Shown here piece by piece: positions 2,152 to 58,235 of a DNA stretch of 64,000 bases (positions are counted from its first letter, which is position 1; every line of letters starts with the position of its first letter). The DNA lies in NCBI GenBank assembly GCA_041665545.1, contig JBAYIQ010000004.1:18132-82131 (forward strand), read 5' to 3'. This DNA comes from Patescibacteria group bacterium (GTDB lineage Bacteria; Patescibacteriota; Patescibacteriia; UBA1558; GWA2-36-10). Position numbers and translations under genes: made by a program. The notes under the pieces are model-generated. The model saw nothing but the letters and a program-made list of their open reading frames with translations, made no database searches and was not told the origin of the DNA.

Positions 2152-2871
2152 CTACGCGCCGTAGACCAACAAAGAACGAATGGTGCCGTACAATGCCCTA
2201 CTGCTCTGACCCCAAGGATCGCGAACCAGGTAATTCGTGCCATCATAGGCATAAATCACCAAGTAATGACTGGGGGTAGTGCCAAAACTGACCCTTGCAA
2301 CGACTGGCCTACCAGTGGCCAGCTCTTTATAGATTTGGGTGTAAGCAATGTTGCGGTACGGCCTACTCACATAGCCATACTGCAGCGCTTCTGGCAAGCG
2401 AATAAGATCTCCGCATTCAGAGGTGGAAAAGGCATAGTGAGCCCTACCCTGGTAACTCCAGTTGTTAAGCACAACCGGCGTCATCGATGAGTAGCCCCAC
2501 CTCTTGTACAGCATGGCCAGGCAGGTGAGGTGACAGCCATACTTACCGATGGTCGAATTGCCGCAAGGGTAATTGAAACCAAGGGCAACATCCTTCCATG
2601 CCGGATCCAGCTGGCTGAAGTAAGGCACGTTCAGATAGATGCAGGCATTGGCCTTGTTCGGACTGACCTGCTCGGACGCCGCTCTGCCAGCAGCATTAAC
2701 CTCATCGGCAGAAATGTTGAGTTCGATGGGATCGTCGACCCCAGTATTCGGGTCAAAACTTCCGACTATCGGAGCCGTGACCATCGGCTCCTCCCTGTCA
2801 CAGCCCGCCATCCACGACAGCAGGCCCAGCGCCAGCAGTACGCTGACCAACAAACTCACTCGGCTCTTCAT
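2152..2871 (-). CDS. High-GC lipoprotein with a peptidase C39-like (papain-like cysteine peptidase) domain
   Basis: ORF track 2152..2904; the probable start is MKSRVSLL, with a GGAAGGA Shine-Dalgarno about 7 nt upstream. The signal peptide ends in LSWMAGC, a lipobox-like Cys. YFSQLDPAWKD...CGNSTIGKYGCHLTCLAMLY resembles the Peptidase_C39_2 (YvpB/BtrH-like) catalytic region. Local GC is about 50-60% against a roughly 37% background. Confidence 0.5.
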   Translation of the reverse strand: MKSRVSLLVSVLLALGLLSWMAGCDREEPMVTAPIVGSFDPNTGVDDPIELNISADEVNAAGRAASEQVSPNKANACIYLNVPYFSQLDPAWKDVALGFNYPCGNSTIGKYGCHLTCLAMLYKRWGYSSMTPVVLNNWSYQGRAHYAFSTSECGDLIRLPEALQYGYVSRPYRNIAYTQIYKELATGRPVVARVSFGTTPSHYLVIYAYDGTNYLVRDPWGQSSRALYGTIRSLLVYGA

Positions 2872-3104
2872 GACAAGTCCTTCCATGAAAAAGTCCAAGA
2901 ACAAACACGCGACTTGCTTTGAGGGTAATCCGCAAATAAACCTCCTTGGTTGTAAAGAACAAGTGCTCGTTCTTTTGCCCTCACAAAAGATTGAGCCAGC
3001 TAAAAATTTTCGCTTTTCTTAGCTTGGACAAGGCCCGAAAGATACAGGCAAACTTTTTAGGCCTTGCTCCAAGATAAAAAAATATCTTAAAAAATTATGA
3101 TAAA

Positions 3105-6737: not shown

Positions 6738-7061
6738 TTATAATTGTTTATTAATTTTTTCTAACAAAACTTTTTTGGACTGCATACCCACCATATCCTC
6801 TACTACCTTTCCACCTTTAAAAATCTTTAAGGCCGGGATAGACATTATTTCAAACTCTTGGGACTTAAGTGGGTTTTCCTCAACATTAAATTTAGCAATT
6901 TTTATATTGCTTTTGTCTTTCAGCTCTTCGGCTAGCTGGTCAATGATTGGTCCTTGCATTTTGCAAGGCATACACCAAGAGGCCCAAAAATCCACCAAGG
7001 CCACTCCCTCAAAATTTTTTATTTCTTGATCAAAGTTTTGATCGTTTAATTCTAATGCCAT
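6738..7061 (-). CDS. trxA: Thioredoxin
   Basis: A 107 aa protein with active site WASWCMPCK, a variant of WCGPCK. It lies immediately upstream of trxB on the same strand. Confidence 0.85.
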   Translation of the reverse strand: MALELNDQNFDQEIKNFEGVALVDFWASWCMPCKMQGPIIDQLAEELKDKSNIKIAKFNVEENPLKSQEFEIMSIPALKIFKGGKVVEDMVGMQSKKVLLEKINKQL

Positions 7062-7078
7062 AAATTTGTTATTAATTA

Positions 7079-7342
7079 TTAACTAGTTTTAAATAATATT
7101 TCTATTAATTTATTTAATTCTTTTTTCTTATTTTTAGTTCCCGACTGATAACAGCCATTCACCTTGTCAGTAATTAGCAAACGAGTGACCGAGTCCAGTG
7201 AAGCGCGCGCAGCCATCACCACTCGCACCACTTCTTCCACTTCTCTTTTTTCGCCGTACATTTTTTCAATCGCGCGAATCTGACCCTCAATGCGATGAAG
7301 TTGAGAATAGATTTTTTGTGGATGACAGGATTGTTTGCTCAT
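7079..7342 (-). CDS. CsoR/RcnR/FrmR-family (DUF156) metal- or thiol-sensing transcriptional repressor, atypical ligand set
   Basis: QLHRIEGQIRAIEKM...ASL matches the CsoR-family helix alpha1/alpha2. The positions of the canonical Cu ligands (first Cys and His of the C-H-C set) are replaced (REVEEVV ... KVNGC). Only one Cys is retained, plus an N-terminal Cys-His (SCHP). Confidence 0.6.
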   Translation of the reverse strand: MSKQSCHPQKIYSQLHRIEGQIRAIEKMYGEKREVEEVVRVVMAARASLDSVTRLLITDKVNGCYQSGTKNKKKELNKLIEILFKTS

Positions 7343-7351
7343 ATACCCTCT

Positions 7352-7375
7352 GGGGGTATTATATCAAACCAGTAA
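7352..7375. promoter_or_regulatory. Putative CsoR-type operator overlapping the csoR-like start
   Basis: ATATACCCTCTGGGGGTATTATAT is a pseudo-palindrome ATACCC-N5-GGGTAT with a G-tract. It resembles, from memory, described CsoR operators of the TACCC...GGGGTA type. Confidence 0.35.
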
Positions 7376-7713
7376 AAACACGTCAAGTGTGGTGGTGGAA
7401 AATCACTAACCCCTCCAACCTCCCCTTAACAGGGGAGGAACATTTAAGCCCCCCTTGTCTCGCCCACAGGGCGATCACCCTCTGGGTGAAAAGGGGGTTC
7501 CTGCCTGCCGGTAGGCAGGAAGCAATCTACAAGCTTGTGGATTGCCACGCCCCGTCGCGTCAGACGCGACGGGGCTCGCAATGACGAACCGAAAAACTAA
7601 CTTCGGATCAACAAACTTCTCGACTCCCCCTCGACCTGGCTCGGGGTCGCTCGGGATTTCGCGAGACAAACAGGAGGATACTTTTTGTTTGAAGTCATTG
7701 TTAATATTTCAGT

Positions 7714-7780
7714 GTCATTCCTGCGAAGGCAGGAATCTAGCCAGATCCCGCAACAAGTGCGGCAAGTGCGGGATAACAAC
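7714..7780. mobile_element. MITE-like palindromic element, family A, compact copy
   Basis: TGTCATTCCTGCGAAGGCAGGAATCTA ... CAGATCCCGCAACAAGTGCGGCAAGTGCGGGATAACA. Each arm is itself a hairpin. It is homologous to the copy at 9385-9468 (TGTCATTCCCGCGAAAGCGGGAATCTA ... TAGATCCTGGATCAAGTCCGGGATGACA), with terminal inverted repeats TGTCAT/ATGACA. Confidence 0.5.
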
Positions 7781-7864
7781 ATGGTTGGGGGGTTTGTTTT
7801 AAATCCTCCTTGTCAAACGGCCCTGCCCGAGCTTGCTCGAAGAAATAGACCCTTGTGCGATATT

Positions 7865-7893
7865 TGACAATAATCTTAATAGGTGATATAATA
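7865..7893 (+). promoter_or_regulatory. Exact consensus sigma70 promoter (TTGACA-17-TATAAT) for the 7923 gene
   Basis: TTGACAATAATCTTAATAGGTGATATAAT sits about 30 nt upstream of a GGGAGG Shine-Dalgarno and the ATG. Confidence 0.6.
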
Positions 7894-7922
7894 TAGTGTT
7901 TCCATAACCGGGAGGTTCTTTC

Positions 7923-8183
7923 ATGGCAGACCGTAAGGGTCCTTCGGCTGTAAGCTCGGTCTTCATCTGGCTGGCGTATTTGTCGGCAATTGCCGGCGAA
8001 TCCCTTCTTCTCTGCAAGACTTGGTGGGAGTTTGCGGCGCTTGTGGGCATTGGCGTCGCTGTTTTCTTCCTCGTCGCGTTCTTCATTGGCCTATTTAGCA
8101 TCAAGCGCCACGGCGCCGTCCATGTCCTGCTGATAGCAGTACTCGTGCTTTCGGCAATGACTCACCTGGCCATCTTCGCGTGA
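7923..8183 (+). CDS. Small high-GC membrane protein (two predicted TM helices), unknown function
   Basis: An 86 aa ORF with its own consensus promoter, Shine-Dalgarno and terminator. It has two hydrophobic segments (VSSVFIWLAYLSAIAG, VGIGVAVFFLVAFFIGLF...VLLIAVLVLSAM). GC is well above the flanking DNA. Confidence 0.5.
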   Translation: MADRKGPSAVSSVFIWLAYLSAIAGESLLLCKTWWEFAALVGIGVAVFFLVAFFIGLFSIKRHGAVHVLLIAVLVLSAMTHLAIFA

Positions 8184-8211
8184 CAACACATCACCCAGAA
8201 TGGAGAATCGG

Positions 8212-8257
8212 CCCCGTAAGTGTACGCAACGCTACGGGGTCTTAATTTTGTTTAATT
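8212..8257 (+). terminator. Rho-independent terminator of the 7923 gene
   Basis: CCCCGTAAGTGTACGCAACGCTACGGGG hairpin followed by TCTTAATTTTGTTTAATTT. Confidence 0.6.
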
Positions 8258-8274
8258 TATCATGAGTTAGCTAA

Positions 8275-8385
8275 CCCAGTTAGAAATTTACCTTAGTTGG
8301 CATATGAGATAAACTTATATAAGCAACTAAGTGACAATTTTACTAATAATACGGCATAAAATATTCAAAATAATTTCTAACTGGG
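8275..8385. repeat. Inverted-repeat element of the CCCGTTAGAAATT family (copy E1)
   Basis: CCCAGTTAGAAATT at 8275-8288 and its reverse complement AATTTCTAACTGGG at 8372-8385 flank a 83 bp AT-rich interior. The arms match copies E2-E5 at 34666-34745, 46548-46626, 47786-47889 and 47896-48044. Confidence 0.5.
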
Positions 8386-8439
8386 CTAATATTAGCCAAA
8401 AGTATTGCTTCTGTAAAGAAATGGCAGTAAATATAGGGA

Positions 8440-8468
8440 TTGACAAAATTTGATAAAGGGTGTATAAT
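8440..8468 (+). promoter_or_regulatory. Exact consensus sigma70 promoter with extended -10 (TTGACA-17-TGTATAAT) for the 8652 gene
   Basis: TTGACAAAATTTGATAAAGGGTGTATAAT. It is followed by a leader of about 180 nt containing the palindromes TATCTATTATATAGATAG and CTTTACATGGTGTAAAG, then the Shine-Dalgarno AAAAGGAGAG and the ATG. Confidence 0.6.
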
Positions 8469-8651
8469 TTTATGTTACTTTAAGTACCTTAATATTTACT
8501 TGCAAACAGCCATAATAGCCCCAGCGTTTAGATTATCTATTATATAGATAGTTTAACCGCTGCGGCTATTCGATAGTCGCTTCTACTGGTGTGCCTTGTG
8601 TCTTTACATGGTGTAAAGATAAGAGGTGTACCGAAAAAAGGAGAGAAAACC

Positions 8652-9242
8652 ATGGCTCGTCAGAAGAGTGAGTTCGTGAGTGCCCTGGGCACGGCCTTCG
8701 AGATGATCAAGCTGATCGCCGAGGAGGTCTACTTCCTGGGTGGTAACGACAACAACATGCGGACGATCCTCAAGGATCGCAAGCTGCGTCAGCAGATCGC
8801 CAAGTTGTTGGTCGCCAACACCGGTGATGTCTGCGCGTTGGACATCTTCGGCAAGAGCATCGATGAGCTGGTAAGGCAGGGTAACTACGACTGGGCCAAC
8901 AACAGCATCAACGACCACAACTTCAAGGCGGACGAGATGCACCAGACCGAAGTCTTTCTCAAGCACTTCGGCCAGAACATGAGTATGGAGGCCGTGCTCA
9001 ATGCTCTGGATGCCGACGGCCTGCGTCCGGCGACCATGTCCGAGCTGCTCGGGTTCGGCATTCGCTATCCCGAACTGCAGCGGCAGTTCCCCATCGTGGC
9101 CCTCGGCTCTGTCTTGCAGTTTACCGGTGGTGGACGTCGTGCCGGTTGCCTCTACGGCAGTGCTGACGAGCGCAGGCTCGGTCTGAACTGGGTCGACGGT
9201 GACTTGAGCGGTGCCTATCGCGTCGCTGCTGTTCGCAAGTAA
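8652..9242 (+). CDS. High-GC hypothetical cytoplasmic protein (197 aa), unknown function
   Basis: ORF track 8589..9242; the start is set at MARQKSEF, directly after a strong Shine-Dalgarno. There is no TM segment and I recognise no motifs. The clearly elevated GC gives the codon usage of a high-GC organism. Confidence 0.5.
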   Translation: MARQKSEFVSALGTAFEMIKLIAEEVYFLGGNDNNMRTILKDRKLRQQIAKLLVANTGDVCALDIFGKSIDELVRQGNYDWANNSINDHNFKADEMHQTEVFLKHFGQNMSMEAVLNALDADGLRPATMSELLGFGIRYPELQRQFPIVALGSVLQFTGGGRRAGCLYGSADERRLGLNWVDGDLSGAYRVAAVRK

Positions 9243-9313
9243 CTGGCACTTGGCCACTTGTGTCCTCGGGACTTGATTGTCCCTTTGACACTTGGCCTCG
9301 GCCAAATCGCAAG

Positions 9314-9359
9314 ACTCCGCTTTAATCGCTTCAGTGTGATGGGCGGAGTTTTCTTTTTT
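9314..9359 (+). terminator. Rho-independent terminator of the 8652 gene
   Basis: ACTCCGC...GCGGAGT hairpin followed by TTTCTTTTTT. Confidence 0.55.
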
Positions 9360-9384
9360 AAATAAAAAAACGCCAACCCCATAC

Positions 9385-9468
9385 TGTCATTCCCGCGAAA
9401 GCGGGAATCTACTATTATTATACCAATGGCAAATCAATGGTAGATCCTGGATCAAGTCCGGGATGACA
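9385..9468. mobile_element. MITE-like palindromic element, family A, full copy
   Basis: An 84 bp element with terminal inverted repeats TGTCATTCCCGCGAAAGCGGGAATCTAC / GTAGATCCTGGATCAAGTCCGGGATGACA. Each arm is a GC-rich hairpin. A second copy lies at 7714-7780. Confidence 0.5.
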
Positions 9469-9528
9469 ATGAAAAACGGCGAATTAAAAGTCTAGTATTC
9501 TTGCGAGAAACCAAAACCCCGCACCAAC

Positions 9529-9603
9529 TGGTCCCCTCACCAGGAATCGAACCTGGATCTAGAGCTTAGGAGTCTCTTGTTCTATCCATTGAACTATGAG
9601 AGG
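9529..9603 (-). tRNA. tRNA-Arg (anticodon CCU)
   Basis: A manual cloverleaf fits. The acceptor stem is CCTCTCA/TGAGGGG, followed by T8 A9. The D-stem is GTTC/GAAC. The anticodon loop CTCCTAA gives anticodon CCT. The T-arm is CCAGG-TTCGATT-CCTGG, and the discriminator A and CCA are encoded. The plus strand shows the diagnostic GGAATCGAACC. Confidence 0.8.
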
Positions 9604-9722
9604 GTCAAGTGGTGCGGGGCAAACTCCAATCCAATCTACAAAGCACACGAGTGCCCTGTTTATTAAAAATAAGGGCTAGTTGTTTGTCCCTAATATTAGC
9701 TAATAGTTTGAGTCGTAATATA

Positions 9723-9851
9723 TTACTGAAGCATTTTGGTCAAAAACTGAGTACGGCTCTCAATCATATAAACTACCAAATAAATTACTAGGATTGCTCC
9801 AACAATAATTCCCAACCTTTTTAGTTCTGCTTTAATATTTTTGTCAGTCAT
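9723..9851 (-). CDS. Possible small single-TM protein (42 aa)
   Basis: ATG...TAA ORF MTDKNIKAELKRLGIIVGAILVIYLVVYMIESRTQFLTKMLQ on the minus strand, not in the track because it is under 60 aa. It has a hydrophobic core and no obvious Shine-Dalgarno. Confidence 0.2.
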   Translation of the reverse strand: MTDKNIKAELKRLGIIVGAILVIYLVVYMIESRTQFLTKMLQ

Positions 9852-9985
9852 AATAGTGTTTATTAATTAATGCCGTGTAATTTTAGTATATACGGCTGTT
9901 TTTGTCCATGGTTTTTTGTATTTCTTTGACAATTTTGGCTCCTTAAACTAAAATTAAGGTCGTTAATTTATAATAAAAAAATAAT

Positions 9986-10429
9986 ATGTTTGGTAAAAAA
10001 GAAGCAGTAGTAAGCACAAAAAATATTGAAACAATAATCGGCCCCTCGGTAAAAGTAGAGGGTAATTTTGCGGGTGAAGGAGATTTGGTCATTGAAGGTA
10101 TGCTGGTTGGCACCCTAAACACCAAAAATAACCTCAAAATCGGCTCTAGTGCCGTAGTAGAGGCCACTGTCCGGGCCAATAACGCCTTTATTGCTGGCCG
10201 AGTCAAGGGCAATATCACTATCAAAGGGCGACTAGAAATCACTAGCTCAGCCGTAATTGTCGGCGACATCAAGGCCGCGGTTCTGTCCATAGAGAGTGGC
10301 GCCTTGATTCAGGGCAATGTGGCTATGCCTTTCGGCGAAGCAAAACACGAGGAACACCGCCCTAATCCCAAAAAAGAAGTGAAGCGAGCTGAAAATGAGT
10401 TGCCCGAAGAAAAACCTTTGGAGTCATAA
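9986..10429 (+). CDS. Bactofilin (polymer-forming cytoskeletal protein)
   Basis: Repetitive beta-helical bactofilin (DUF583) core GNFAGEGDLVIEGMLVGTLNTKNNLKIGSSAVVEATVRANNAFIAGRVKGNITIKGRLEITSSAVIVGDI, with a charged C-terminal tail. Confidence 0.7.
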   Translation: MFGKKEAVVSTKNIETIIGPSVKVEGNFAGEGDLVIEGMLVGTLNTKNNLKIGSSAVVEATVRANNAFIAGRVKGNITIKGRLEITSSAVIVGDIKAAVLSIESGALIQGNVAMPFGEAKHEEHRPNPKKEVKRAENELPEEKPLES

Positions 10430-10437
10430 ATTTTGTT

Positions 10438-11184
10438 ATGTATCTTTACATATACGATTCATTTTTGAGTGACAAAAAATATTCTGACCTCTTAGCCCAA
10501 ATTGAAAAACGCGTTACTGACTTGGGCATCAAGGGAAGAATTGCGCGTCTTTCGATTCTAAAAAATATGAAGGAGTTGATCACCGACGGAATCAAGTCTG
10601 GTGTTCAGACTGTGGTGGTCATTGGCAATGTTCAAACTTTTGCCAAAGTTATTAATATTGTGGCTGGCTTGGAAGTGGTGCTTGGTTTGATACCAGTGGA
10701 GAACGACAACAAGATTGCTAAGATGCTGGGCATACCACCAAAACTTTTGGCCTGCGATGTTATTGCTTCGCGCATTATAAAAAAAATTGACCTCGGTCTA
10801 ATCAATGGTCATTTTTTTGTGGGGCAAGCAGAAATTAATGATGCCAATGTTTTGATTGAGTATGACGGCTACAATGTGCGACCAACTACGGCTAATAATA
10901 ATATTACTATTTATAATTTTGCCGAGCGTTGTATAATACCAAATTCAACACCAGTTGATGGCGTGCTGGAGGTAGTGATCACACCAATGAAGTCTGGCGT
11001 CTTTGGTAAAAAAAATATTACTGGCACTATTTTACCTTTTTCCAAAATTAAAATAAGCACCGAGGGCGAGGAGCAGGTCTCCATCTTGACTGACGAACAG
11101 GTGATCATGAAGACGCCGGCTGAGATAAGTGTGGCGCCCCAAAAACTCCGAGTGATAGTGGGTCCAGAAAGATGTTTTGAATAA
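10438..11184 (+). CDS. Diacylglycerol-kinase catalytic-domain (DAGK_cat/YegS-like) family protein, divergent
   Basis: N-terminal fold pattern ...GVQTVVVIGNVQTFAKVINIVAG... resembles the DAGK_cat GGDGT region, with the motif degenerate. Confidence 0.4.
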   Translation: MYLYIYDSFLSDKKYSDLLAQIEKRVTDLGIKGRIARLSILKNMKELITDGIKSGVQTVVVIGNVQTFAKVINIVAGLEVVLGLIPVENDNKIAKMLGIPPKLLACDVIASRIIKKIDLGLINGHFFVGQAEINDANVLIEYDGYNVRPTTANNNITIYNFAERCIIPNSTPVDGVLEVVITPMKSGVFGKKNITGTILPFSKIKISTEGEEQVSILTDEQVIMKTPAEISVAPQKLRVIVGPERCFE

Positions 11185-11211
11185 AACCTAGTTTAGATAA
11201 CTAGTTTAGAT

Positions 11212-11251
11212 GTGCAAAAAAACCGCCTAAATTGAGGCGGTCTTTTTTTTG
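11212..11251. terminator. Bidirectional rho-independent terminator between convergent genes
   Basis: A-run, hairpin ACCGCC-TAAATTG-AGGCGGT, then TCTTTTTTTTG. It serves the plus-strand gene ending at 11184 and minus-strand yidC, whose stop lies within the stem. Confidence 0.7.
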
Positions 11252-11922
11252 AAACCCAGCACCATATATTGCTGGAGTATTGAGAAAAGTGTAGTAAATA
11301 GCCAATAAAGCGTCAAGCCAGCCGGCAAATTGCCACCGATGACGATCGTAAAAATCGGCATAAAATAAATCATCTGATTGGTCATTATTTTGGACATGCC
11401 GGTTTGTTGTGATTTGCCCATCAACATCTTGGACTGCCAAAATTGAGCCACTCCGGCTAATATAGCAATGATCCAATTCTTGCTAGCCAAATTAATAAAG
11501 CCAAAAGCAATTATGTTTAGTTGGCCGGGATTTTGAACAAAAGAATACAAGGCGCCATTGCTGTTGTCTTTGGTCAAGCCGTTTAAAAAAACTTGGTACA
11601 GGGCAATCAAAAATGGTAATTGTATTAAGGTTGGCAAACAAGAAGAAAAGGGATTTATTTTTCTTTCTTTGTAGAGGGCCATAAGCTCAGGCGCCATCTT
11701 TTCTTTGTCATCTTTGTATTTTTCTTTGATCTTTTCTATTTCCGGTTGAATGGTTTGCAATTCTTTTTGCGACTTGATGGCTTTTTGAGAAAAGGGATAT
11801 AAGGCCAATCTAATAACCAAAGTGATTAGAATGATGGCCACGCCCAAATCCTTACCAGGAACCAGGTTGTACAAAAAAATCAGTAAGTTGTAAATTGGTT
11901 GATAAAAAATTGTGTAAAACAT
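11227..11922 (-). CDS. yidC: Membrane protein insertase YidC (short form)
   Basis: AIILITLVIRLALYPFSQKAIKSQKELQTIQPEIEKIKEKYKDDKEKMAPELMALYKERKINPFSSCLPTLIQLPFLIALY matches the YidC/Oxa1 conserved core. Genomic context is rpmH-rnpA-yidD-yidC. Confidence 0.85.
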   Translation of the reverse strand: MFYTIFYQPIYNLLIFLYNLVPGKDLGVAIILITLVIRLALYPFSQKAIKSQKELQTIQPEIEKIKEKYKDDKEKMAPELMALYKERKINPFSSCLPTLIQLPFLIALYQVFLNGLTKDNSNGALYSFVQNPGQLNIIAFGFINLASKNWIIAILAGVAQFWQSKMLMGKSQQTGMSKIMTNQMIYFMPIFTIVIGGNLPAGLTLYWLFTTLFSILQQYMVLGFKKKTASI

Positions 11923-11925
11923 ATT

Positions 11926-12201
11926 TTATTTGATTGGATCAATTCCGCCCTTTGACCAGGGGTTACAGCGCGCTATGCGCCAAAGCGATAAATAAATTCC
12001 TTTTATGGTTCCGTGTTTTTCAAACGCCTGTCGACTATATTCCGAACAATGCGGATGAAAGCGACAAAAACCATGGGGGAAAAATATTTTTAAGTATCCT
12101 TGGTCTGGCGAAAATATTTTTTGATAAATTTTAATTAAAAAAATAAATATACTAGCCAACAAGTGGTCGATTATCTTTATTGCTCTTAACATTGCTTTCA
12201 A
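11926..12201 (-). CDS. yidD: Membrane protein insertion efficiency factor YidD
   Basis: A 91 aa protein with FCRFHPHCSEYSRQAFEKHG...RCNPWSKGGIDP (YidD signature). It overlaps the rnpA 3' end. Confidence 0.8.
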   Translation of the reverse strand: MKAMLRAIKIIDHLLASIFIFLIKIYQKIFSPDQGYLKIFFPHGFCRFHPHCSEYSRQAFEKHGTIKGIYLSLWRIARCNPWSKGGIDPIK

Positions 12202-12538
12202 TATACAGGCGAGTTGTTTTTAAAGCAAATTGGAATTGCTTCTGCAAATCTGGCAGAGTAAGCCCAACACAGCTTTTTTTGGCTATAAACAAAATGTCTA
12301 CTCCGACTTTAATTTTGCTTAGTTCTGGTCTAATGGCCTCCCGCATACGACGCTTGGTCTTGTTTCTAACAACGGCCCGCTTATCCACCTTAGTAGAAAC
12401 AACAAAGCCCAGACGTAGCAAATTTTGGTTATTATATTGATATTTGAGGGTTAATTGGGGTAAAAAAAAAGTTTTGCCCCCACGGACCAAGTTTTTGATA
12501 TCCTTATCTGCGTGTAGCCTAAATTTTTTAGGCAACAT
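12152..12538 (-). CDS. rnpA: Ribonuclease P protein component
   Basis: KRAVVRNKTKRRMREAI matches the RnpA RNR motif. It is positioned between rpmH and yidD. Confidence 0.85.
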   Translation of the reverse strand: MLPKKFRLHADKDIKNLVRGGKTFFLPQLTLKYQYNNQNLLRLGFVVSTKVDKRAVVRNKTKRRMREAIRPELSKIKVGVDILFIAKKSCVGLTLPDLQKQFQFALKTTRLYIESNVKSNKDNRPLVG

Positions 12539-12541
12539 AAT

Positions 12542-12682
12542 TTAGAGACTTATTTTCTTTCGGCCCCTGGCTTTTCGTCTTTTCAAGACTTTTCGACCAT
12601 CTTTGGTGGCCATGCGCTTCATAAAGCCGTGCTTTCTGGCTCTTTTTCTTTTTTTTGGTTGGTATGTCCTTTTTGTTGCCAT
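12542..12682 (-). CDS. rpmH: 50S ribosomal protein L34
   Basis: A 46 aa ORF missed by the 60 aa track cutoff: [46 protein letters not shown], near-consensus L34. It is immediately upstream of rnpA. Confidence 0.85.
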
Positions 12683-12841
12683 ATAAAATTAAATTACCTA
12701 AATAAAATAACATATTTACTTAATTTAATCAAGGGGAGTCACCAACTTGATTATACCCACATTTTATTAACAATTTATGCACTCTCGGTCTTATTTGAGC
12801 ATTTAAAAATATGTGGTATATTTACTGCAGTTTGTAAAAAC

Positions 12842-14212
12842 ATGGATAATTACGAAAAAATTTGGCAAAGTGTCCTGGGTCAACTGGAGTTATTGATCAG
12901 TAGGGCTAATTTTACCACCTGGTTCAAAAATACCTTTTTGGCCGAGTTTGATAACCAGCAAGTTGTGGTTGGGGTACCCAATTCCTTTACCAAGGTTTGG
13001 TTAGAAAAGAAGTATCACGATCACATTACTAAGGCCCTGGAAGACACCTTATCAAAAAGTAATCTACAAGTTATCTACAGGGTGGAAAATAGGGAAAGTT
13101 TAGCTAATATTAGCAAAAATGTTGAGATTGTTGACAAGCCAAGCGAGGAGCTTGTGCACAACCAAAGCCCACAGCCAAAGGCAAGTAATAAGTATGGTTT
13201 AAACCAAAATTATACCTTTAATTCCTTTGTTGTTGGCCCAGGCAATGAGCTGGCCCAGGCAGCAGCTATGGCCGCAGCCCAAAAACCCGGCGAAATGTAT
13301 AACCCTTTGTTTATATACGGGGGTGTGGGTTTGGGCAAAACCCATCTAGCCCAGGCCGTTGGTAACTATATTTTGGCTAAAAATCCACAAAAAAAGGTCC
13401 TTTATATCAATAGCGAAAAATTCACTAATGACTTTATTTTTGCTATAAAAAGGGGCCAAACAGATGAATTTAAGAACATTTATCGCAATGTGGATGTCTT
13501 ATTGATAGATGATATTCAGTTTATTGCTGGAAAAGAGCAGACCCAAGAGGAGTTTTTTCACACCTTCAACGCTCTACACCAAAATAACAAGCAAATTGTG
13601 CTTTCTTCTGATCGACCACCCAAAGCGCTGGGTGGGGTGGAAAATCGTTTGATTTCCCGTTTTGAGTGGGGCATGATTGCTGATATTTCTTTTCCTGACT
13701 TAGAAACCAGGGTGGCTATTTTGGAAATAAAATGCCAACAAAAAAATTATCATTTAGAAAAAGCCCTAGTACAACTGGTGGCCGAAAGTATTCAAGAAAA
13801 TATCCGCGAGCTAGAAGGAGCACTAAACAGGATTATTGCTTTTCATCAACTGAACAATACGCGACCTTCTTTGGAAAGTGTGCGCTCACTTTTGGGTGGC
13901 ATTTCCGCCAATCCAAAAAAAGCCGGACTAACTACTAAAAAATTATTAAAAACTGTTATTGAATTTTTTGATATTAGTATGGATGAGTTGCTTGGTGCCA
14001 GTCGCAAAAAAGAATTGGTCATGCCGCGACAAATTGCCATGTACTTGATGCGCGAACAACTAAAATCATCCTTCCCAAACATTGGACACGAAATTGGTAG
14101 TCGCGATCACACCACAGCCATGCATGCTTGTGTGAAAATATCTGAATTAGTAGCGACTGATGAACGCGTAAAAAATGATATTGCTGTACTCAAACAAAAG
14201 CTCTATGAATAA
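12842..14212 (+). CDS. dnaA: Chromosomal replication initiator protein DnaA
   Basis: ORF track 12629..14212; the start is set at MDNYEKIWQ, because the upstream part overlaps rpmH. AAA+ Walker A GVGLGKTHLAQA, sensor motifs, and a C-terminal DNA-binding domain (IAMYLMREQLKSSFPNIGHEIGSRDHTTAMHACVKI). Confidence 0.9.
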   Translation: MDNYEKIWQSVLGQLELLISRANFTTWFKNTFLAEFDNQQVVVGVPNSFTKVWLEKKYHDHITKALEDTLSKSNLQVIYRVENRESLANISKNVEIVDKPSEELVHNQSPQPKASNKYGLNQNYTFNSFVVGPGNELAQAAAMAAAQKPGEMYNPLFIYGGVGLGKTHLAQAVGNYILAKNPQKKVLYINSEKFTNDFIFAIKRGQTDEFKNIYRNVDVLLIDDIQFIAGKEQTQEEFFHTFNALHQNNKQIVLSSDRPPKALGGVENRLISRFEWGMIADISFPDLETRVAILEIKCQQKNYHLEKALVQLVAESIQENIRELEGALNRIIAFHQLNNTRPSLESVRSLLGGISANPKKAGLTTKKLLKTVIEFFDISMDELLGASRKKELVMPRQIAMYLMREQLKSSFPNIGHEIGSRDHTTAMHACVKISELVATDERVKNDIAVLKQKLYE

Positions 14213-14445
14213 ACTGTTGACTAGTTGGTGGGCGCTTGTGTAAATCTCCTGGAAAATAATTTTTTTTAAAAGACAAGATTAAAATCGCGACTTTCTGCAC
14301 AGAGTTATCAGGTGGTCGTGCACAAGACAAATAGATAAATAAACACAAAATCACTGAACAAATACTTTATACAGCTCAAACTTATCAACATATGCACCGC
14401 GCCTACTACGGCTATATAATATATATATAAATTAATAATAAGTAT

Positions 14446-15552
14446 ATGAAAATTATTTGCACGCAAGAAAATTTAAATTACGGATTGGGATTAGTTTCAC
14501 ATATCGCCAATAAAAACAGTAATTTGCCCATATTAAACAATGTTTTGATTAAAGCGGAGAAAGAGGGCATTACTCTAATAACCACTGATCTAGAAATCGG
14601 CGTAAAGGTTTTTGTGCGTAGCAAAGTAGAGGAGGAAGGCGCCTTTACCGTGGATGCTAAACTGTTAAATAGTTTTATTAATTTATTACCAAAAGAAAAC
14701 ATTACCCTGACCTTGGGCGAGGATAATAGTTTGGAAGTGAAAAGTAAAAATCAAGACACGGCCATTCGCGGCATGGAAGCCGAAGACTTTCCACTCATAC
14801 CAGAAATTTCTAAAGACAATGAAATTGAAGTGTCGTCTTTGGATCTCAAAAAAAGCTTGAGCCAAGTAATATTTGCCGCTTCACTGGACAACACTAGAAT
14901 AGAAATAAACGCGGTCAATTTTAATTTCAAGGGAGAGCAATTAACCTTGGCCGCCACTGATAGTTATCGTCTAGCCGAAAAGAAAATAAAAATTGCCAAC
15001 CAAAGTAAAGAAAGCAATTTAATAATCCCCCTAAAAACCCTACAAGAATTATTGCGCATTTTAAATGAAAATTCTGAAAAAAATCTAAAAATATATTTTA
15101 ACGAAAATCAAATAATGTTTTCACTGGATGGTGTGGAGCTAGTCTCCAGAGTAATTGACGGCAACTATCCAGACTACAAGCAAATTATTCCCGACAAATT
15201 TAATACCAACATCAAGTGCGATGCTGATAAATTATTGCCAGCCATCAAAGCAGTTTCTCTTTTTTGTAAGCAGGGGATTAACGACATTAGGGTAAGCTTC
15301 GACAACGCTACCAATGAAATTGTTATTACCACCGCCTCATCGCACGCTGGAAAAAGTCTGGCCAAGGTGCCAGCCGAAATAAGCGGAGAAAACAACGACA
15401 TTGTTTTCAATTATCGTTATATTATAGACGGATTAAACAATATTGATCAAAAAGAGGTGTTTATTAATATAAACAACAACACTTCGCCGGGATTGATAGG
15501 GCCAGTGGGCCATGACGACTATATTTACCTGGTTATGCCGATTAGACAATAG
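14446..15552 (+). CDS. dnaN: DNA polymerase III beta subunit (sliding clamp)
   Basis: N-terminal MKIICTQENLNYGLGLVSHIANKNSNLPILNNVLIKAEKEGITLITTDLEIG is the typical DnaN domain I. It follows dnaA. Confidence 0.85.
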   Translation: MKIICTQENLNYGLGLVSHIANKNSNLPILNNVLIKAEKEGITLITTDLEIGVKVFVRSKVEEEGAFTVDAKLLNSFINLLPKENITLTLGEDNSLEVKSKNQDTAIRGMEAEDFPLIPEISKDNEIEVSSLDLKKSLSQVIFAASLDNTRIEINAVNFNFKGEQLTLAATDSYRLAEKKIKIANQSKESNLIIPLKTLQELLRILNENSEKNLKIYFNENQIMFSLDGVELVSRVIDGNYPDYKQIIPDKFNTNIKCDADKLLPAIKAVSLFCKQGINDIRVSFDNATNEIVITTASSHAGKSLAKVPAEISGENNDIVFNYRYIIDGLNNIDQKEVFININNNTSPGLIGPVGHDDYIYLVMPIRQ

Positions 15553-15721
15553 CTTGTGGAAATGTTTTTTGGCAAATTATTATAAATTTGCTATAATATA
15601 TTGACACTCGAAAATACCTGCGTCGAACAGGGATTTGTCGGGCGCTATAGAGATATGTAATTTCAGAAATGAAGCAAGAAACATCCGTGCGCGATCTAGG
15701 GTGTTTTTTGTTTTATATAAA

Positions 15722-15756
15722 TGAAACCCGCCCACAGAACCGTAGTTCTGGGGCGG
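15722..15756 (-). terminator. Rho-independent terminator of the 15778..16248 gene
   Basis: ACCCGCCCACAGAAC-CGTA-GTTCTGGGGCGGGT hairpin. On the minus strand it is followed by TTTCATTTATATAAAACAAAA (T-rich). Confidence 0.55.
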
Positions 15757-15777
15757 GTGAGGGGTGGAAGTGGGGTC

Positions 15778-16248
15778 CTACTTCTTGGGCTTGATCTTGG
15801 CCAGGCTGGCGGTCTTGAAGCGCCCGAAGGCGCGCTTGACCTGGCGCTTGTAGTCCAGGCCATAGTGGACGGCCAACCACTGTCCCTGAAGCGCGAGCAC
15901 TTCGGGGTCGAGATGGAATTTCTTCCAATCCCTGAGAAGGTGGGCGGTCATGGCCGGCTTGATCCGAGTCACGCGGCGTCGGTTCTTGCTAGCGTCAGGC
16001 TTGACGCGGGCCAGCCGTTTGCGCAGCTTGCCCTGCCTGGAATGCAAGCCGCGAACCTCTTGTCGCAGACGAGAGCGCTGGGCGGATTGACGTCTGTTGG
16101 CCAACTCCAGGCGCGAGATCCTGGCCTGAGACGCTGCCAAACCGGCGGCCAGGTCTTTGAGCGCTTTGTCCACACGGCGCTCGAAGCGGGTCTGTGCTGC
16201 TGCTGTTGAGCGACGCAACGCTGGTAAGGATTGTTTTCGACGGGTCAC
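15778..16248 (-). CDS. High-GC basic coiled-coil-like hypothetical protein (156 aa), GTG start
   Basis: A strong Shine-Dalgarno (AAGGAGGA) lies 7 nt upstream of the GTG, with its own terminator and its own TTGACA-17-TATAAA promoter. GC is about 60%. The protein is very basic (RRKQSLPALRRS...RRQSAQRSRLRQEVRGLHSRQGKLRKRLARVKP). Confidence 0.5.
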   Translation of the reverse strand: MTRRKQSLPALRRSTAAAQTRFERRVDKALKDLAAGLAASQARISRLELANRRQSAQRSRLRQEVRGLHSRQGKLRKRLARVKPDASKNRRRVTRIKPAMTAHLLRDWKKFHLDPEVLALQGQWLAVHYGLDYKRQVKRAFGRFKTASLAKIKPKK

Positions 16249-34648: not shown

Positions 34649-34665
34649 TATAATATACACATGTA

Positions 34666-38756: not shown

Positions 38757-39146
38757 ATGTATAAATATATTATTTCATTATTTCTATTGTTGCCCTTTAC
38801 TGTCCTAGCAGTGAATCCTTTGGATTCTTTGAATGAGGCAGCCGGAGGCACTGGCTTGGTGAGTAATAAAACTCCGATTCAGATTGTTACTAGCATCATC
38901 AACACCATCCTTTATTTTGTGGGGGCTATAGTTATTGTCCTGATGCTTTGGGCGGGCTTCAAGTGGATGACTTCAGCTGGCAACACTGAAGCCATCAAAA
39001 AATCTAGAGAAACTATTATCAATGCCGTGATTGGCTTGGTAATTATTTTTGCGTCTTATGTGATAGTCAATTTTGTGATGTTAAGACTTATTGAGGGTAT
39101 TGGTGTTGGTGGCACTGGAGGTTCTCCGGCGACAGTTGCTGATTAA
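38757..39146 (+). CDS. TrbC/VirB2-like T4SS-pilin-family paralog 4, Gly/Thr/Ser/Pro-rich C-terminal tail
   Basis: ORF track 38748 (GTG); the ATG at 38757 has the better Shine-Dalgarno (AAGGTG). Signal peptide ISLFLLLPFTVLA. Core LYFVGAIVIVLMLWAGFKWMTSAGNTEAIKKSRETIINAVIGLVIIFASYVIVNFV. Tail GIGVGGTGGSPATVAD. Confidence 0.55.
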   Translation: MYKYIISLFLLLPFTVLAVNPLDSLNEAAGGTGLVSNKTPIQIVTSIINTILYFVGAIVIVLMLWAGFKWMTSAGNTEAIKKSRETIINAVIGLVIIFASYVIVNFVMLRLIEGIGVGGTGGSPATVAD

Positions 39147-39169
39147 GGGTTCTAGTTAAATTTTTATAA

Positions 39170-39215
39170 AATAAAGCGGCTCCAGTCCATTGCGACTAGA
39201 GCCGTTTTTTCGATG
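39170..39215. terminator. Bidirectional terminator between pilin paralog 4 (+) and the 39230 lipoprotein (-)
   Basis: CGGCTCCAGTCCATTGCGACTAGAGCCG hairpin with an A/T-run on the upstream side and GTTTTTTCG on the downstream side. Confidence 0.5.
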
Positions 39216-39229
39216 AGGTGTGTGTTTTT

Positions 39230-39913
39230 TTATAGCCTGATACAGCCACCCCTGTCCAGCAGCATACCCTGATTGTTGTTGGGGATAAAGTCATTGATCA
39301 AGAAGACAGCGTCAACTGACCGACCCTGCCACGGCACCTTGTGTCCGGGCGCAAGATTTCGACAGCCACGGATGACTCGTCCTCTGTCTTCCCAAACCAG
39401 TACGAAGTCGCCAGCTGCGATGAAGATGATTTTCTCTTCGTGGGGACGAAGAGTAAACACCGGCCCTTGTATGTTTTGGAAGGTTTTGGTCTGAGAGCTG
39501 ATGTTTTTTACCACTACCTCTAGCCGCGCCCAGCCTTGCACGAGGAATTCATCAACGATAATTGGCTCGCCAGTGTACAGACCGACTACGTGGTTTTCTT
39601 CCCCGTGTAGCACCTGGTCATTTCCTACCCATGGAGCCGTCCAGATTTCGTAACGTATGTATTTTTGTGCTCTCGTTTCTACAGGGAAGTCCCTTCCGTA
39701 GGGGAGTGGGATCTTGGGTCCACCGTTGACTGACACAACGGCCCAGCCAATGTAGTGCCGTTGGAAGGTCAATGTGACGGTGGGTGGGTTATCGCCGTAG
39801 GGATGATCGAGAGCGCGACCCTGTTCGTCGCGGAACTCGGTGCCGAGGCCCAAGCAGCCACAAAGGGGCAACAGGGCCATCAGGCACAGGGAGATAAGCA
39901 CATAGCGACGCAT
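39230..39913 (-). CDS. High-GC lipoprotein, unknown function
   Basis: ORF track 39230..39925 (GTG); the ATG at 39913 (MRRYVLISLCLMALLPLCGC lipobox-like) is preceded by Shine-Dalgarno GTGAGGTG. GC is about 53%. It has its own exact TTGACA-17-TATAAT promoter. I recognise no domain. Confidence 0.5.
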   Translation of the reverse strand: MRRYVLISLCLMALLPLCGCLGLGTEFRDEQGRALDHPYGDNPPTVTLTFQRHYIGWAVVSVNGGPKIPLPYGRDFPVETRAQKYIRYEIWTAPWVGNDQVLHGEENHVVGLYTGEPIIVDEFLVQGWARLEVVVKNISSQTKTFQNIQGPVFTLRPHEEKIIFIAAGDFVLVWEDRGRVIRGCRNLAPGHKVPWQGRSVDAVFLINDFIPNNNQGMLLDRGGCIRL

Positions 39914-39976
39914 ATAGCACCTCACTTGTTGAATGTTCTTTTTTTAGGCCCAAAATAGGGCTTTTACTAACACTAT

Positions 39977-40005
39977 ATTATACACCACATAGCCAAAATT
40001 GTCAA
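39977..40005 (-). promoter_or_regulatory. Exact consensus sigma70 promoter (TTGACA-17-TATAAT) for the 39230..39913 lipoprotein gene
   Basis: Minus-strand reading TTGACAATTTTGGCTATGTGGTGTATAAT. Confidence 0.6.
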
Positions 40006-40042
40006 TGTCTAGTTTTGAAAACAACCCGTCGGGTTGAATTAG

Positions 40043-52221: not shown

Positions 52222-52650
52222 TTATTGGTTAATATTTTGAGCAATAAATTGATAAAGCGCCATTGCAGCGTATTCTGCATAGGTATTGTTGGTGCAACTG
52301 AAGCGATAGTAATCATCGATTGATCGTATAATATTATCGGGAGCAGTAGACCCTATTCTTTTGGTCCGCTCTAAAATATAATTAAGCTTTTCAATGATTT
52401 TTTCTATAGTCGTGCCAGAGTCTTTTTCTTTTTGTAATTCAGCAGTAACTTCTTGAATAATGTTTAGATATTTTTGGTAAATTGGTTTTAAATGTTTTTC
52501 TATTAGCAAGTCTTTTTCACTCGCCTGAATCCACCCGATATCTAGAGCATAAGTAAGGCATTCTTCGTAATATGTATTTTCATCCAGGATTTTTCCCCTG
52601 TCTTCATTTTGTATTTCTGGCCATTGTCCTGGTAATCTTGTTTTTTCCAT
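52222..52650 (-). CDS. Hypothetical cytoplasmic protein (142 aa)
   Basis: The ORF is preceded by a 104 bp sequence identical to the one upstream of the 52745..53308 gene. I recognise no motifs. Confidence 0.4.
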   Translation of the reverse strand: MEKTRLPGQWPEIQNEDRGKILDENTYYEECLTYALDIGWIQASEKDLLIEKHLKPIYQKYLNIIQEVTAELQKEKDSGTTIEKIIEKLNYILERTKRIGSTAPDNIIRSIDDYYRFSCTNNTYAEYAAMALYQFIAQNINQ

Positions 52651-52745
52651 ATTTTATTATTTCACTTTTCCAAATTTCCTTTTTCCAGCTTGCACCACAT
52701 CGCCGGATTTGATGATGATATCTTTGTCCCAAGCTGATATTTTTT
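52642..52745. repeat. 104 bp perfect direct repeat, copy 1 (contains a duplicated fragment of the tyrS 3' end)
   Basis: Identical to 53300-53403. It comprises the last ~29 codons of tyrS (...SGDVVQAGKRKFGKVK*), plus the intergenic ATAAAAT and a start codon. Confidence 0.8.
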
Positions 52746-53308
52746 TATATTACCATTGCTATCCCCATAGCCATTAGAGTATTCCACCATATATATAAAT
52801 AAGCAAATCCTATTTCAGGATGCAATTCCTTATATTCTAAAAAATCATTAATAGTACTTGTATAGATGGGGTTCTGTAGAGGGGTTGTGTTATATTCAGC
52901 TAGTAGCCACACAAAAGCAATTACCCCAGCCAATAAAGATAAAAATATTATACTGTTTTTTGAAATTTTGGTTATAGATCCTAAGCCAATAAGCATAATC
53001 AATCCACCCACAAAACCAGCTACTAGGAAAGAAAAAGGTGGTTTTATAATAGCTTCAGCTATGACCACCCAAAAAGATGCATGATAAGCAATAGCGCAAC
53101 AGGCGAGCCATATTAAGGTATTCTCAGGATTCTTTTTTTCTTTTTTAATAATAAATATGGCCGGAAATATAAAAATCCCAAAAATTAATCCTGGCAATAG
53201 AGATAAGGCATAAAAGTTATGGGTAACATCAAAGAGCAGAATATAGTTAACTACTAGTGCGGACATAAGGCCAAACAGTGGCAAAATAATAAATTTTAAT
53301 TTTTCCAT
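52745..53308 (-). CDS. Hypothetical polytopic membrane protein (187 aa, about 6 TM)
   Basis: The gene is flanked by the two copies of the 104 bp direct repeat. It has a hydrophobic profile throughout. Confidence 0.45.
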   Translation of the reverse strand: MEKLKFIILPLFGLMSALVVNYILLFDVTHNFYALSLLPGLIFGIFIFPAIFIIKKEKKNPENTLIWLACCAIAYHASFWVVIAEAIIKPPFSFLVAGFVGGLIMLIGLGSITKISKNSIIFLSLLAGVIAFVWLLAEYNTTPLQNPIYTSTINDFLEYKELHPEIGFAYLYIWWNTLMAMGIAMVI

Positions 53309-53403
53309 ATTTTATTATTTCACTTTTCCAAATTTCCTTTTTCCAGCTTGCACCACATCGCCGGATTTGATGATGATATCTTTGTCCCAAGCTGATATTT
53401 TTT
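53300..53403. repeat. 104 bp perfect direct repeat, copy 2 (authentic tyrS 3' end plus downstream start region)
   Basis: Identical to 52642-52745. Confidence 0.8.
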
Positions 53404-57738: not shown

Positions 57739-58235
57739 ATGTTGGATTTGACTCGGCCCCGCACTTCGGATGAGGTCTATGTTTCTGGCGCATTGACCAA
57801 TGCCAAGTTGAAAGGAGGAGTCGATCCCAGGGAGCTTTATAAGCTGATCGGCGATCTCTGTCGGCGTAAGGGTCTCAATCCCTACGTACCGCATTTGCAC
57901 ACCGATCCGGTCTTGCACAAGGACATTCATCCCACGTACGTCTACGAAATGGACCATCAGAAGGTGCTGGATGCCTGCCTGCTCATTGCCTATGTGGGCC
58001 AGGCCAGTGGTGTGTTGGTATGGAGATGGAGATGGCCAGAGCCAATTTCACCCCGATCATCGTGCTGTACGAGGCCGATGTTCCGGTCACCAACATCTCA
58101 CGCATGTATCGGGGAAATCGGGCTGTGAAGGCAGTGGTCCGCTTCATGGACATGGATGACGCTTTGGCTAAGCTGGAGCTGGCCATTGAAGTGGTGCTGG
58201 CAAGGTGGGTTCGGTCTCAACCGCTGATCTTCTAG
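57739..58235 (+). pseudogene. High-GC nucleoside 2-deoxyribosyltransferase-family gene, interrupted by a -1 frameshift
   Basis: Two overlapping ORFs in different frames (57739..58128 and 58020..58235) together reconstitute an NDT-like protein. The N-terminus is VYVSGALTN, the catalytic region is ...YVGQASGV(L)GMEMEMARANFTPIIVLYEAD (compare GLGMELGYA...VLLVIPDED), and the frames join at GGTGTGTTGGTATGGAGATGG. GC is about 55-60%. Confidence 0.55.

Follow-up and report, generated by a model that had tools for sequence, protein, structure and literature searches.

Hypervariable, recombining surface-protein loci are already known as a kind. The factor H-binding protein of Neisseria meningitidis is made of variable segments that occur in discrete lineages and are combined at short invariant linkers, while O-antigen and capsule loci, as well as flexible genomic islands, recombine in their conserved flanks and follow phage-driven constant-diversity dynamics; flexible genomic islands are usually AT-richer than the genome that carries them, not GC-richer. 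The vls cassettes of Borrelia average 49.1% GC against 28.6% for the chromosome, and their GC skew averages 0.52 (PMC11499132). The locus described here lies in a 64,000-nucleotide (nt) stretch of a Patescibacteria group bacterium (assembly GCA_041665545.1, contig JBAYIQ010000004.1, positions 18,132 to 82,131), hereafter the window, and consists of a gene at 39230..39913 on the minus strand that codes for a lipoprotein of 227 amino acids (aa) from its ATG, plus the stop codon. It is distinguished from the systems above by belonging to an unannotated, clade-confined family, by a fixed slot next to a VirB2-like pilin array, by allele classes that differ at the level of modules, by a consensus promoter present in 12 of 13 GC-rich loci, and by a persistent GC excess of 15-25 points that comes without the skew of vls and without silent cassettes in the 64 kb window.

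The gene is found in the same slot in all placed loci, namely those in which the family member lies on a readable contig, with one marine contig of 1 kb (L017) standing outside the slot count. The order is invariably DUF2079, lipoprotein, three or four PF18895 pilins, a 454-aa SBP-like lipoprotein, NTP_transferase, Wzy_C, flippase, and RecA, so that the neighbourhood is one of envelope functions (Wzy_C, flippase, sugar nucleotidyltransferase, the GT-C-like DUF2079 protein, and the pilin array). Even the distant members P0022, P0030, and P0037, which are recognised by profile search only (E 1e-22 to 5e-4), occupy this slot in genomes whose RecA is 78-85% identical to that of the window. The window segment itself carries dnaA, dnaN, ruvA, rpoB, rpoC, ftsK, recA, uvrB, and polA, and the closest named relatives of its RecA belong to Candidatus Komeilibacteria and to the Parcubacteria group (80-83% identity). 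As for the extent of the family, a word-index search (20 clusters) retrieved 20 homologues at 33-100% identity, an exhaustive profile search among 1.84 billion representatives returned only 24 proteins at E<=1e-3, and only 5/185,579 species genomes carry a member. Sequence-profile searches of Pfam, NCBIfam, PHROGs, PADLOC, and PDB gave no match, and no publication was found that describes the lipoprotein family or GC-rich hypervariable genes in Patescibacteria. The family is unannotated and confined to one Patescibacteria clade, in which the gene is a lineage-specific resident of a conserved slot.

Within this fixed position, the body of the open reading frame (ORF) is replaced between close relatives. 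The flanking DNA of L022, L002, and L011 is 0.83-0.93 identical to that of the window, and L022 also retains the window allele (0.82-1.0 identity). In L002 and L011, identity falls to 0.2-0.6, or the sequences become unalignable, from nt ~30-110 to nt ~700 of the gene (the ORF being nt 1-684), and over the replaced stretch these two alleles are also unlike each other. The left breakpoint thus lies at gene nt ~30-110, with the signal-peptide segment still alignable (0.76-0.85 nt identity) in the close relatives whose ORF body is replaced, and on the other side identity returns at the terminator (39177..39204). At the protein level, the flanking products of L002 and L011 are mostly 85-99% identical to those of the window (one pilin reaches 69%, RecA 98-99%), whereas their lipoproteins are only 36-47% identical to the window protein. 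Likewise, the proportions of synonymous and nonsynonymous differences (pS and pN) between the window and these two genomes amount to 0.3-0.5 and 0.01-0.07 in the flanking genes and rise to 0.66-0.75, which is saturation, and 0.36-0.38 in the lipoprotein gene, which argues that the alleles are much older than the genomes that carry them.

Moreover, the two halves of the protein are reassorted between genomes. The interdomain linker GLYTGEPIIVDEFLVQGW (GLYTGxPIxIDEFLLR; 39530..39583, minus strand, residues 111-128) is conserved even in the most distant members and marks the junction between domain types: across it, DNA identity to the L008 allele climbs from 0.4-0.5 to ~0.8, and the C-domains of the two proteins are 83% identical, whereas their N-domains share only 45%. 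Similarly, P0002 joins the N-type of P0011 and P0012 to the C-type of the window. When 22 proteins are sorted into domain types at 75% identity, at least 14 N-domain and at least 11 C-domain types are obtained, and within types dN/dS is 0.03-0.2 with dS >1; this conservative evolution within types indicates that the diversity consists of old allele classes shuffled by recombination, and not of ongoing hypermutation. The breakpoints coincide with conserved stretches, that is, the region from the promoter through the signal peptide to the tether motif FRDEQGRALDHPYGD (39791..39835, minus strand, residues 27-41), whose columns are near-invariant and which forms the left recombination anchor, the interdomain linker, and the terminator. 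As read from these alignments, ORF interiors are replaced and domains reassorted between related genomes, evidently by homologous recombination in the conserved anchors, and the allele classes are old and held under purifying selection.

This arrangement resembles that of factor H-binding protein in that a modular lipoprotein undergoes, as far as the alleles imply, recombination at one chromosomal locus; however, the two proteins are of unrelated family and fold, the organism here is no pathogen under antibody selection, and neither the GC anomaly nor the consensus promoter is a feature of the factor H-binding protein system. The likeness to O-antigen and capsule loci resides in the conserved slot with divergent content, in the conserved flanking genes that serve as anchors, and in neighbours with envelope functions, while the unit differs in being a single 0.7-kb gene with breakpoints in its own 5' end and in its terminator.

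Some family members look incomplete or are poorly assembled. In the sibling metagenome-assembled genome L021 (GCA_041662385.1), only the C-terminal 103 aa are annotated (MFA6253237.1; 3001..3312, equal to window 39230..39541), but over 931 nt the DNA does not differ from the window at all (100% identity), so that a truncated allele or pseudogene is rejected in favour of an artefact of annotation, for which the atypical composition may be responsible. The "partial" copy of L010 is likewise no truncation, being interrupted by an assembly gap of Ns (~2800..2900) that covers the 3' ends of both the lipoprotein and the pilin gene. Assembly breaks are frequent at the lipoprotein gene (P0003, P0006, P0014, P0016, P0018, L008, L013, and L014), and many family members are on contigs of 0.9-2 kb or at contig ends, a pattern that fits, but does not prove, strain or population heterogeneity.

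The second feature of the gene is its composition. The coding sequence (CDS) has a GC content of 0.539, with 0.60, 0.40, and 0.61 at the first, second, and third codon positions (GC1, GC2, and GC3), against a window mean of 0.397 and a GC3 of ~0.39 in ordinary genes; among windows of 684 bp, the CDS has a z of 2.98, and 4% of these windows reach 0.50. The excess is limited to the CDS, as the 5' untranslated region (5'UTR) with the promoter has 0.337, the 3' intergenic region 0.386, and the neighbouring genes 0.33-0.40. A GC excess is found in 12/12 syntenic genomes, where the gene has 0.50-0.56 GC and a GC3 of 0.55-0.74 between flanks of 0.31-0.43, and scans of 11 loci, each covering 7-21 kb, showed no other ORF >100 aa above 0.47 GC in any of them. 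Because the excess is kept although synonymous sites are saturated, it is no remnant of a foreign origin, and some force must maintain it: GC-richness is a trait that the gene family maintains and not the leftover of an import.

A first-pass annotation of this DNA, made from its letters, had implied a GC-rich cassette of foreign origin, that is, a recently acquired cassette or islet that was inserted downstream of the pilins and brought along a promoter and a terminator. Such an import would account for an atypical composition that is sharply confined to the CDS and for a self-contained transcription unit; in addition, other GC-rich ORFs of the window do look foreign (the share of G-ending Lys, Glu, and Gln codons is 0.71-0.93 in ORF 8652 and ORF 15778), and one GC-rich region of the window adjoins a tRNA-Arg gene. 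Nevertheless, when its presence in relatives was checked, the gene proved to be a positional orthologue conserved across the lineage, located in the same slot in every placed relative down to a RecA identity of 78%, with its promoter and terminator conserved alongside it and without the patchy distribution expected of a recent arrival. The annotation had itself named conservation in the lineage as grounds for refutation, and its reading fails on that account. Furthermore, homologues are found neither outside the lineage nor in viruses, a viral contig scan and tblastn against phage genomes having both come out empty, by which a phage origin is also rejected; no repeats flank the gene, whose neighbours are the pilin and DUF2079 genes with no mobility genes; the sole tRNA gene of the window (9529..9603) lies away from its borders; and the composition has not drifted towards that of the host despite the saturation of synonymous sites. 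Recent import is consequently regarded as extremely improbable, and the term cassette is apt only in the sense that related genomes swap the ORF interior as one piece.

GC-richness and mosaic alleles also recall vlsE of Borrelia, a lipoprotein gene that is GC-richer than its genome, as is the one described here (50-56% against 31-43%), and in both systems diversity arises by recombination while the compositional oddity is conserved across the lineage. A programmed antigenic variation of that type, in which the expressed gene is rewritten within a cell line by segmental conversion from silent cassettes, is nonetheless very unlikely. No partial copy or paralogue is present in the 64 kb window (tblastn with family proteins, blastn with the gene; the best hit has E = 0.009 over 42 aa), and each examined locus has one copy. 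Moreover, coding-strand GC skew is -0.014 in the window allele and -0.13 to +0.04 in the orthologues, far from the vls average given above, and with 12 G-runs against 13 C-runs there is no enrichment of the former. Lastly, variation concerns whole-domain allele classes that differ between genomes with saturated dS, and not recent segmental patches within a lineage, and the protein is predicted to fold as beta-sandwiches, unlike the alpha-helical VlsE. A target of a diversity-generating retroelement is rejected, as the gene is not duplicated, even in part, within the 64 kb, variation spans whole domains, and no reverse transcriptase was found among the scanned window ORFs or the neighbour lists.

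The expression signals of the gene are conserved along with its position. A sigma-70-type promoter (39977..40005, minus strand) combines a -35 TTGACA (40005..40000) and a -10 TATAAT (39982..39977) with a 17-nt spacer, thereby matching the consensus at 12/12 positions; three exact TTGACA-17-TATAAT sites are observed in the window, with 0.02 expected. The same sequence is identical at 12/13 placed GC-rich loci, the exception being L019 (TATGAT), and in the marine L017, which is not GC-rich, the -10 element reads TATATT. Downstream, folding predicts a 5'UTR stem-loop GCCC-UAUUUU-GGGC (39948..39961, minus strand) about 10 nt from the predicted transcript start, and a hairpin recurs at the same position in 12/13 leaders of the GC-rich clade with differing stem sequences (GCCU/GGGC, GGCCUA/UAGGCC, GCCAUC/GAUGGC); the stem-loop may stabilise the mRNA. 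A Shine-Dalgarno sequence GAGGTG (39918..39923, minus strand), conserved in the orthologous leaders, is placed 4 nt 5' of the ATG. At the other end, a bidirectional intrinsic terminator (39177..39204, both strands) with an 11-bp stem and T-runs on either side sits between the convergent stop codons of the lipoprotein gene (39230) and of the fourth VirB2-like pilin gene (PF18895; 38748..39146, stop at 39146), and its stem is kept by compensatory changes in six loci. Much of what the first-pass annotation had described is thus borne out, namely a GC-rich block of ~0.7 kb coding for a 227-aa lipoprotein of unknown function on the strand opposite to the pilin paralogues, the exact consensus promoter, and the bidirectional terminator held in common with the fourth of these paralogues. 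Taken together, the promoter, the 5' stem-loop, the Shine-Dalgarno sequence, and the terminator predict constitutive high expression.

Some leaders carry a further element. The sequence GAACCTTGAAAGAGGTG is conserved upstream of the lipoprotein start in L001, L005, L007, L009, L011, and L013, and its CCUU is able to pair with GAGG of the Shine-Dalgarno sequence to form a short hairpin; it may be a translational control element. The leaders of the window and of L004 have another variant (..CAACAAGTGAGGTG).

The product begins with MRRYVLISLCLMALLPLCGC and bears a signal peptide with a lipobox (39854..39913, minus strand, residues 1-20), in which Cys20 is the predicted lipidated residue. The lipobox pattern [LVI][ASTVI][GAS]C is represented by L-C-G-C20 in the window protein and by L-[AS]-G-C in the orthologues, Gly19 and Cys20 are invariant across the alignment of 20 homologues, and a comparable N-terminal Cys is present in 16/16 distant family members retrieved; neither Lgt nor LspA was found among the window ORFs scanned, a scope of 64 kb. 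An AlphaFold2 model built on the 20-sequence alignment (mean predicted local distance difference test, pLDDT, of 80) comprises a signal helix, a low-confidence tether, two beta-sandwich domains, and a short C-terminal helix. The variable domain 1 is modelled at residues ~44-120 (39554..39784, minus strand) and the variable domain 2 at residues ~128-207 (39293..39532, minus strand; pLDDT ~90), followed by the short helix and a tail to 39233, and the low pLDDT suggests that the region of FRDEQGRALDHPYGD is flexible. C184 and C224 (window numbering) are both present in six alleles and both absent in most others, a pattern that suggests a disulfide formed outside the cytoplasm. In structural comparison, the top matches are the extracellular domains of PepT1/2, pilin and adhesin domains of Gram-positive bacteria, and TssJ. 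The matches to PepT1/PepT2 extracellular domains and to CnaB-type domains, at 8-15% identity and TM-scores of 0.2-0.3, indicate the fold class only and permit no transfer of function, and the modelled fold is that of two generic beta-sandwiches without a functional homologue.

Given its position, the lipoprotein could alternatively be a structural accessory of the pilin array, akin to VirB7, TraV, or TssJ, and variable merely because it evolves fast. It invariably adjoins the array and has a terminator in common with it, a faint match to TraV exists, VirB2-like pilin arrays occur widely among Patescibacteria, including one cultured species in which they are essential, and VirB7 is described as a lipoprotein that is small and evolves fast (PMC12102498). 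On the other hand, the gene runs towards the pilins under a separate promoter on the opposite strand and hence does not belong to the pilin operon, and the adjacent pilins remain 85-95% identical where the lipoprotein allele is swapped, from which it follows that the variable surfaces of the lipoprotein do not co-evolve with the pilins. The TraV match of NCBIfam scores 13.6 bits against a cut-off of 150 (E = 0.06, 15 residues) without any Pfam match, so that no significant sequence similarity to these accessories exists; the similarity to TssJ appears to be that of a generic transthyretin-like sandwich; the protein fits two domains into 227 aa, unlike VirB7, TraV, and TssJ; and no type IV secretion system ATPase (VirB4-type) or core family appears in the Pfam lists within +/-8 kb of eight loci. 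As the old allele classes and the GC content would also be left unexplained, a role of this kind seems unlikely.

The evolutionary description of the locus is well established, and for its biological role the following hypothesis is advanced. On balance, the gene probably codes for a surface lipoprotein that is highly expressed and subject to balancing selection, its alleles passing between genomes by homologous recombination. The locus would act as the single expression site of a lineage-specific cell-surface lipoprotein, transcribed from the sigma-70 consensus promoter that is conserved across the clade into an mRNA that starts with a stem-loop near its 5' end, offers a strong Shine-Dalgarno sequence, and is terminated by the strong bidirectional hairpin. 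The product would be exported and lipid-anchored at Cys20, and would hang from a flexible tether, FRDEQGRALDHPYGD, with its two beta-sandwich domains facing outside. Whole ORF interiors and single domains are swapped through the anchors provided by the 5' end (from the promoter to the tether motif), the interdomain linker, and the terminator, and negative frequency-dependent, that is, balancing selection on the exposed binding surface would keep the diversity. The selective agent is most likely phage adsorption or the recognition of host cells by these probably episymbiotic bacteria. As for the GC content, the favoured guess combines a strong leaning towards C-ending codons, such as very high expression would bring about, with a GC bias associated with recombination.

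The codon data bear on this last point and on an alternative that deals with composition only, according to which GC-richness is the codon signature of an extremely abundant, Lpp-like lipoprotein and variability is incidental. The largest shift indeed concerns the C-ending codons of Phe, Tyr, Ile, Asn, Asp, and His (0.76-0.79 against 0.2-0.35), which Sharp et al. reportedly described in 2005 as generally preferred in highly expressed bacterial genes; for Phe, Tyr, Ile, and Asn, the share is 0.79 in the window allele and 0.68 in 11 orthologues, with ~0.2 in ordinary genes. Translational selection in a very highly expressed gene would give this preference, which also agrees with the expression signals, and the consensus promoter, the strong Shine-Dalgarno sequence, and the 5' hairpin all accord with extreme abundance. 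In contrast to the C-ending codons, the purine-ending ones of Lys, Glu, and Gln are barely shifted in the window allele (G-ending share 0.39, with ~0.32 in ordinary genes), while C at fourfold sites is 0.38 in the window allele, 0.43 in the 11 orthologues, and ~0.30 in ordinary genes. Abundance by itself would not, however, explain why the G-ending share rises to 0.52 across the 11 orthologues or why the amino-acid composition is altered as well, RecA is without such a codon bias, and no ribosomal-protein or EF-Tu genes are present in the 64 kb window as a calibration; it is therefore considered unlikely that codon selection for abundance is the whole explanation.

Several points also weigh against the preferred reading of a highly expressed, recombining surface lipoprotein. 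High expression and surface exposure are predicted from sequence signals, and the choice between phage and host as the selective agent is a guess by analogy. The marine L017 contig is not GC-rich (0.247 against 0.243), so that the GC trait is specific to the clade. GC1 is 0.60 against 0.46, and Lys is depleted (0.026, with 0.082 in ordinary genes) and Arg enriched (0.075 against 0.042), shifts for which codon selection cannot account and which call for a broader GC pressure beyond codon preference. The small shift of the purine-ending (NNR) codons in the window allele fits neither pure GC pressure nor pure translational selection, and rpoB and rpoC have no preference for C-ending codons (0.20-0.24), by which translational selection in this genome looks weak. 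The codon data accordingly point to more than one force acting on the composition of the lipoprotein. The obvious candidate for the broader pressure is GC-biased gene conversion at a recombination hot spot; yet the published GC differences attributed to this process are averages across gene classes (PMC4450053), and, in our own reading of that work, what is documented in bacteria falls far short of the 15-25 points found here. Selection for mRNA structure was discarded as a source of the excess: the z of -2.64 obtained by folding the whole mRNA comes from 20 shuffles only, includes the terminator and the 5' hairpin, and is too weak.

Patescibacteria are mostly uncultured, many of them probably live on the surface of other cells, and the determinants of host binding and phage infection are largely unknown. 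In this context, the lipoprotein, being probably abundant and exposed, would be a concrete candidate for a specificity determinant of host binding or phage infection, and its alleles, as old recombining classes, are a possible natural marker for strain typing. Furthermore, the locus is a clean counter-example to calls of horizontal transfer that are based on composition, as a GC island of +15 points turns out to be a gene that is ancient and vertically placed, with a composition that is actively kept up. It also lends itself to the question of whether a bacterial gene can be kept far from the mutational equilibrium of its genome by recombination hot spots or by extreme expression.

A small palindrome, CAACCCGTCGGGTTG (40022..40036), lies just outside the promoter, where the lipoprotein and DUF2079 genes have a divergent promoter region in common. 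The first-pass annotation had correctly placed a hairpin there and had linked it to a family of miniature inverted-repeat transposable elements (family B); the hairpin stands, and the kinship is not supported, because its core CAACCCGNCGGGTTG, searched with <=2 mismatches, matches only itself in the 64 kb window, whose other repeats are unrelated. The palindrome is retained in the closest relatives only, with L002 carrying a version, CAAGCCGTCGGCTTG, that represents a compensatory change. A distinct family of short intergenic repeats, approximately CC(C/A)GTTAGAAATT(C/T)AC, is found in 4-5 copies at 34661, 46542, 47780, 47890, and 8276, and has no relation to the palindrome at 40022. Within the GC-rich block, long antisense ORFs are not conserved between loci and are set aside as the usual by-product of GC-rich sequence, and a known structured RNA is also rejected, as Rfam finds only a tRNA in the window.

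The annotation had further attributed the same architecture to four other GC-rich cassettes, which proves true in part: two more GC-rich ORFs have an exact consensus promoter in front of them (at 7864 and 8440), whereas those at 2.2, 15.7, and 57.7 kb have none. The promoter at 7864..7892 (plus strand) lies ahead of an ORF for an 86-aa membrane protein (7923..8183), whose orthologue in L020 (364..636) has 0.571 GC, and that at 8440..8468 (plus strand) ahead of a 196-aa ORF (8652..9242) with 0.57 GC, a G-ending share of 0.93 for Lys, Glu, and Gln codons, and no family match. Both lie within a patchy GC-rich region (7100..9420) that adjoins the tRNA-Arg(CCT) gene at 9529..9603 and contains two copies of a hairpin element GTCATTCC(C/T)GCGAA(A/G)GC(G/A)GGAATC (7714..7737 and 9386..9409); the region may be an integrated island.

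Next to ssb, a GC-rich gene for a C39-like lipoprotein (2152..2871, minus strand; Peptidase_C39_2 domain, 0.535 GC) occupies a slot that in L020 (6001..6624) holds a gene of 0.579 GC with an identical signal peptide and linker (MKSRVSLLVSVLLALGLLSWMAGCD.EEPMVTAP) and an unrelated mature domain (P0052), while in P0051 the linker is joined to another C39-like domain that is only 33% identical. The ssb-slot lipoprotein is thus a case of module swapping behind a fixed export signal. Since two independent loci, this one and the lipoprotein slot at 39230..39913, behave in this way, it can be speculated that the clade keeps exchangeable expression slots in which strong signals and a signal peptide are fixed, the ORF body is swapped, and GC content is kept up by a dedicated or recombination-coupled process, although we give this idea a low probability; the corollary that the composition is a mark, or else a product, of an allele-exchange hot spot is held with equally little confidence. 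The finding that 3/3 exact consensus promoters precede GC-rich ORFs is a weaker association that points in the same direction, and the whole hints at a class of GC-rich, strongly promoted, exchangeable loci in this clade.

Other features of the window concern its organisation at large. The cumulative GC-skew minimum falls near 7-9 kb, with rnpA, yidC, dnaA (12629..14212), and dnaN close by, which makes window ~7000..15600 the probable region of the replication origin and places the lipoprotein locus ~25-30 kb from it. In the gap between dnaN and ruvA, 15721..16248 is the most GC-rich block of the window (0.63) and has long ORFs on both strands, of which the 156-aa product of the minus strand is basic and coiled-coil-like, with only a weak PADLOC match to DruG (E = 2e-4). 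A 187-aa ORF (52745..53308), which like its 142-aa neighbour gave no family match, is bracketed by a 112-nt direct repeat with 97% identity between its copies (52634..52745 and 53292..53403). Lastly, the segment 57739..58235, between the PBP1a and uvrB genes, has 0.54 GC and overlapping frames (57739..58128 and 58020..58235), and looks like a frameshifted gene or an assembly error.

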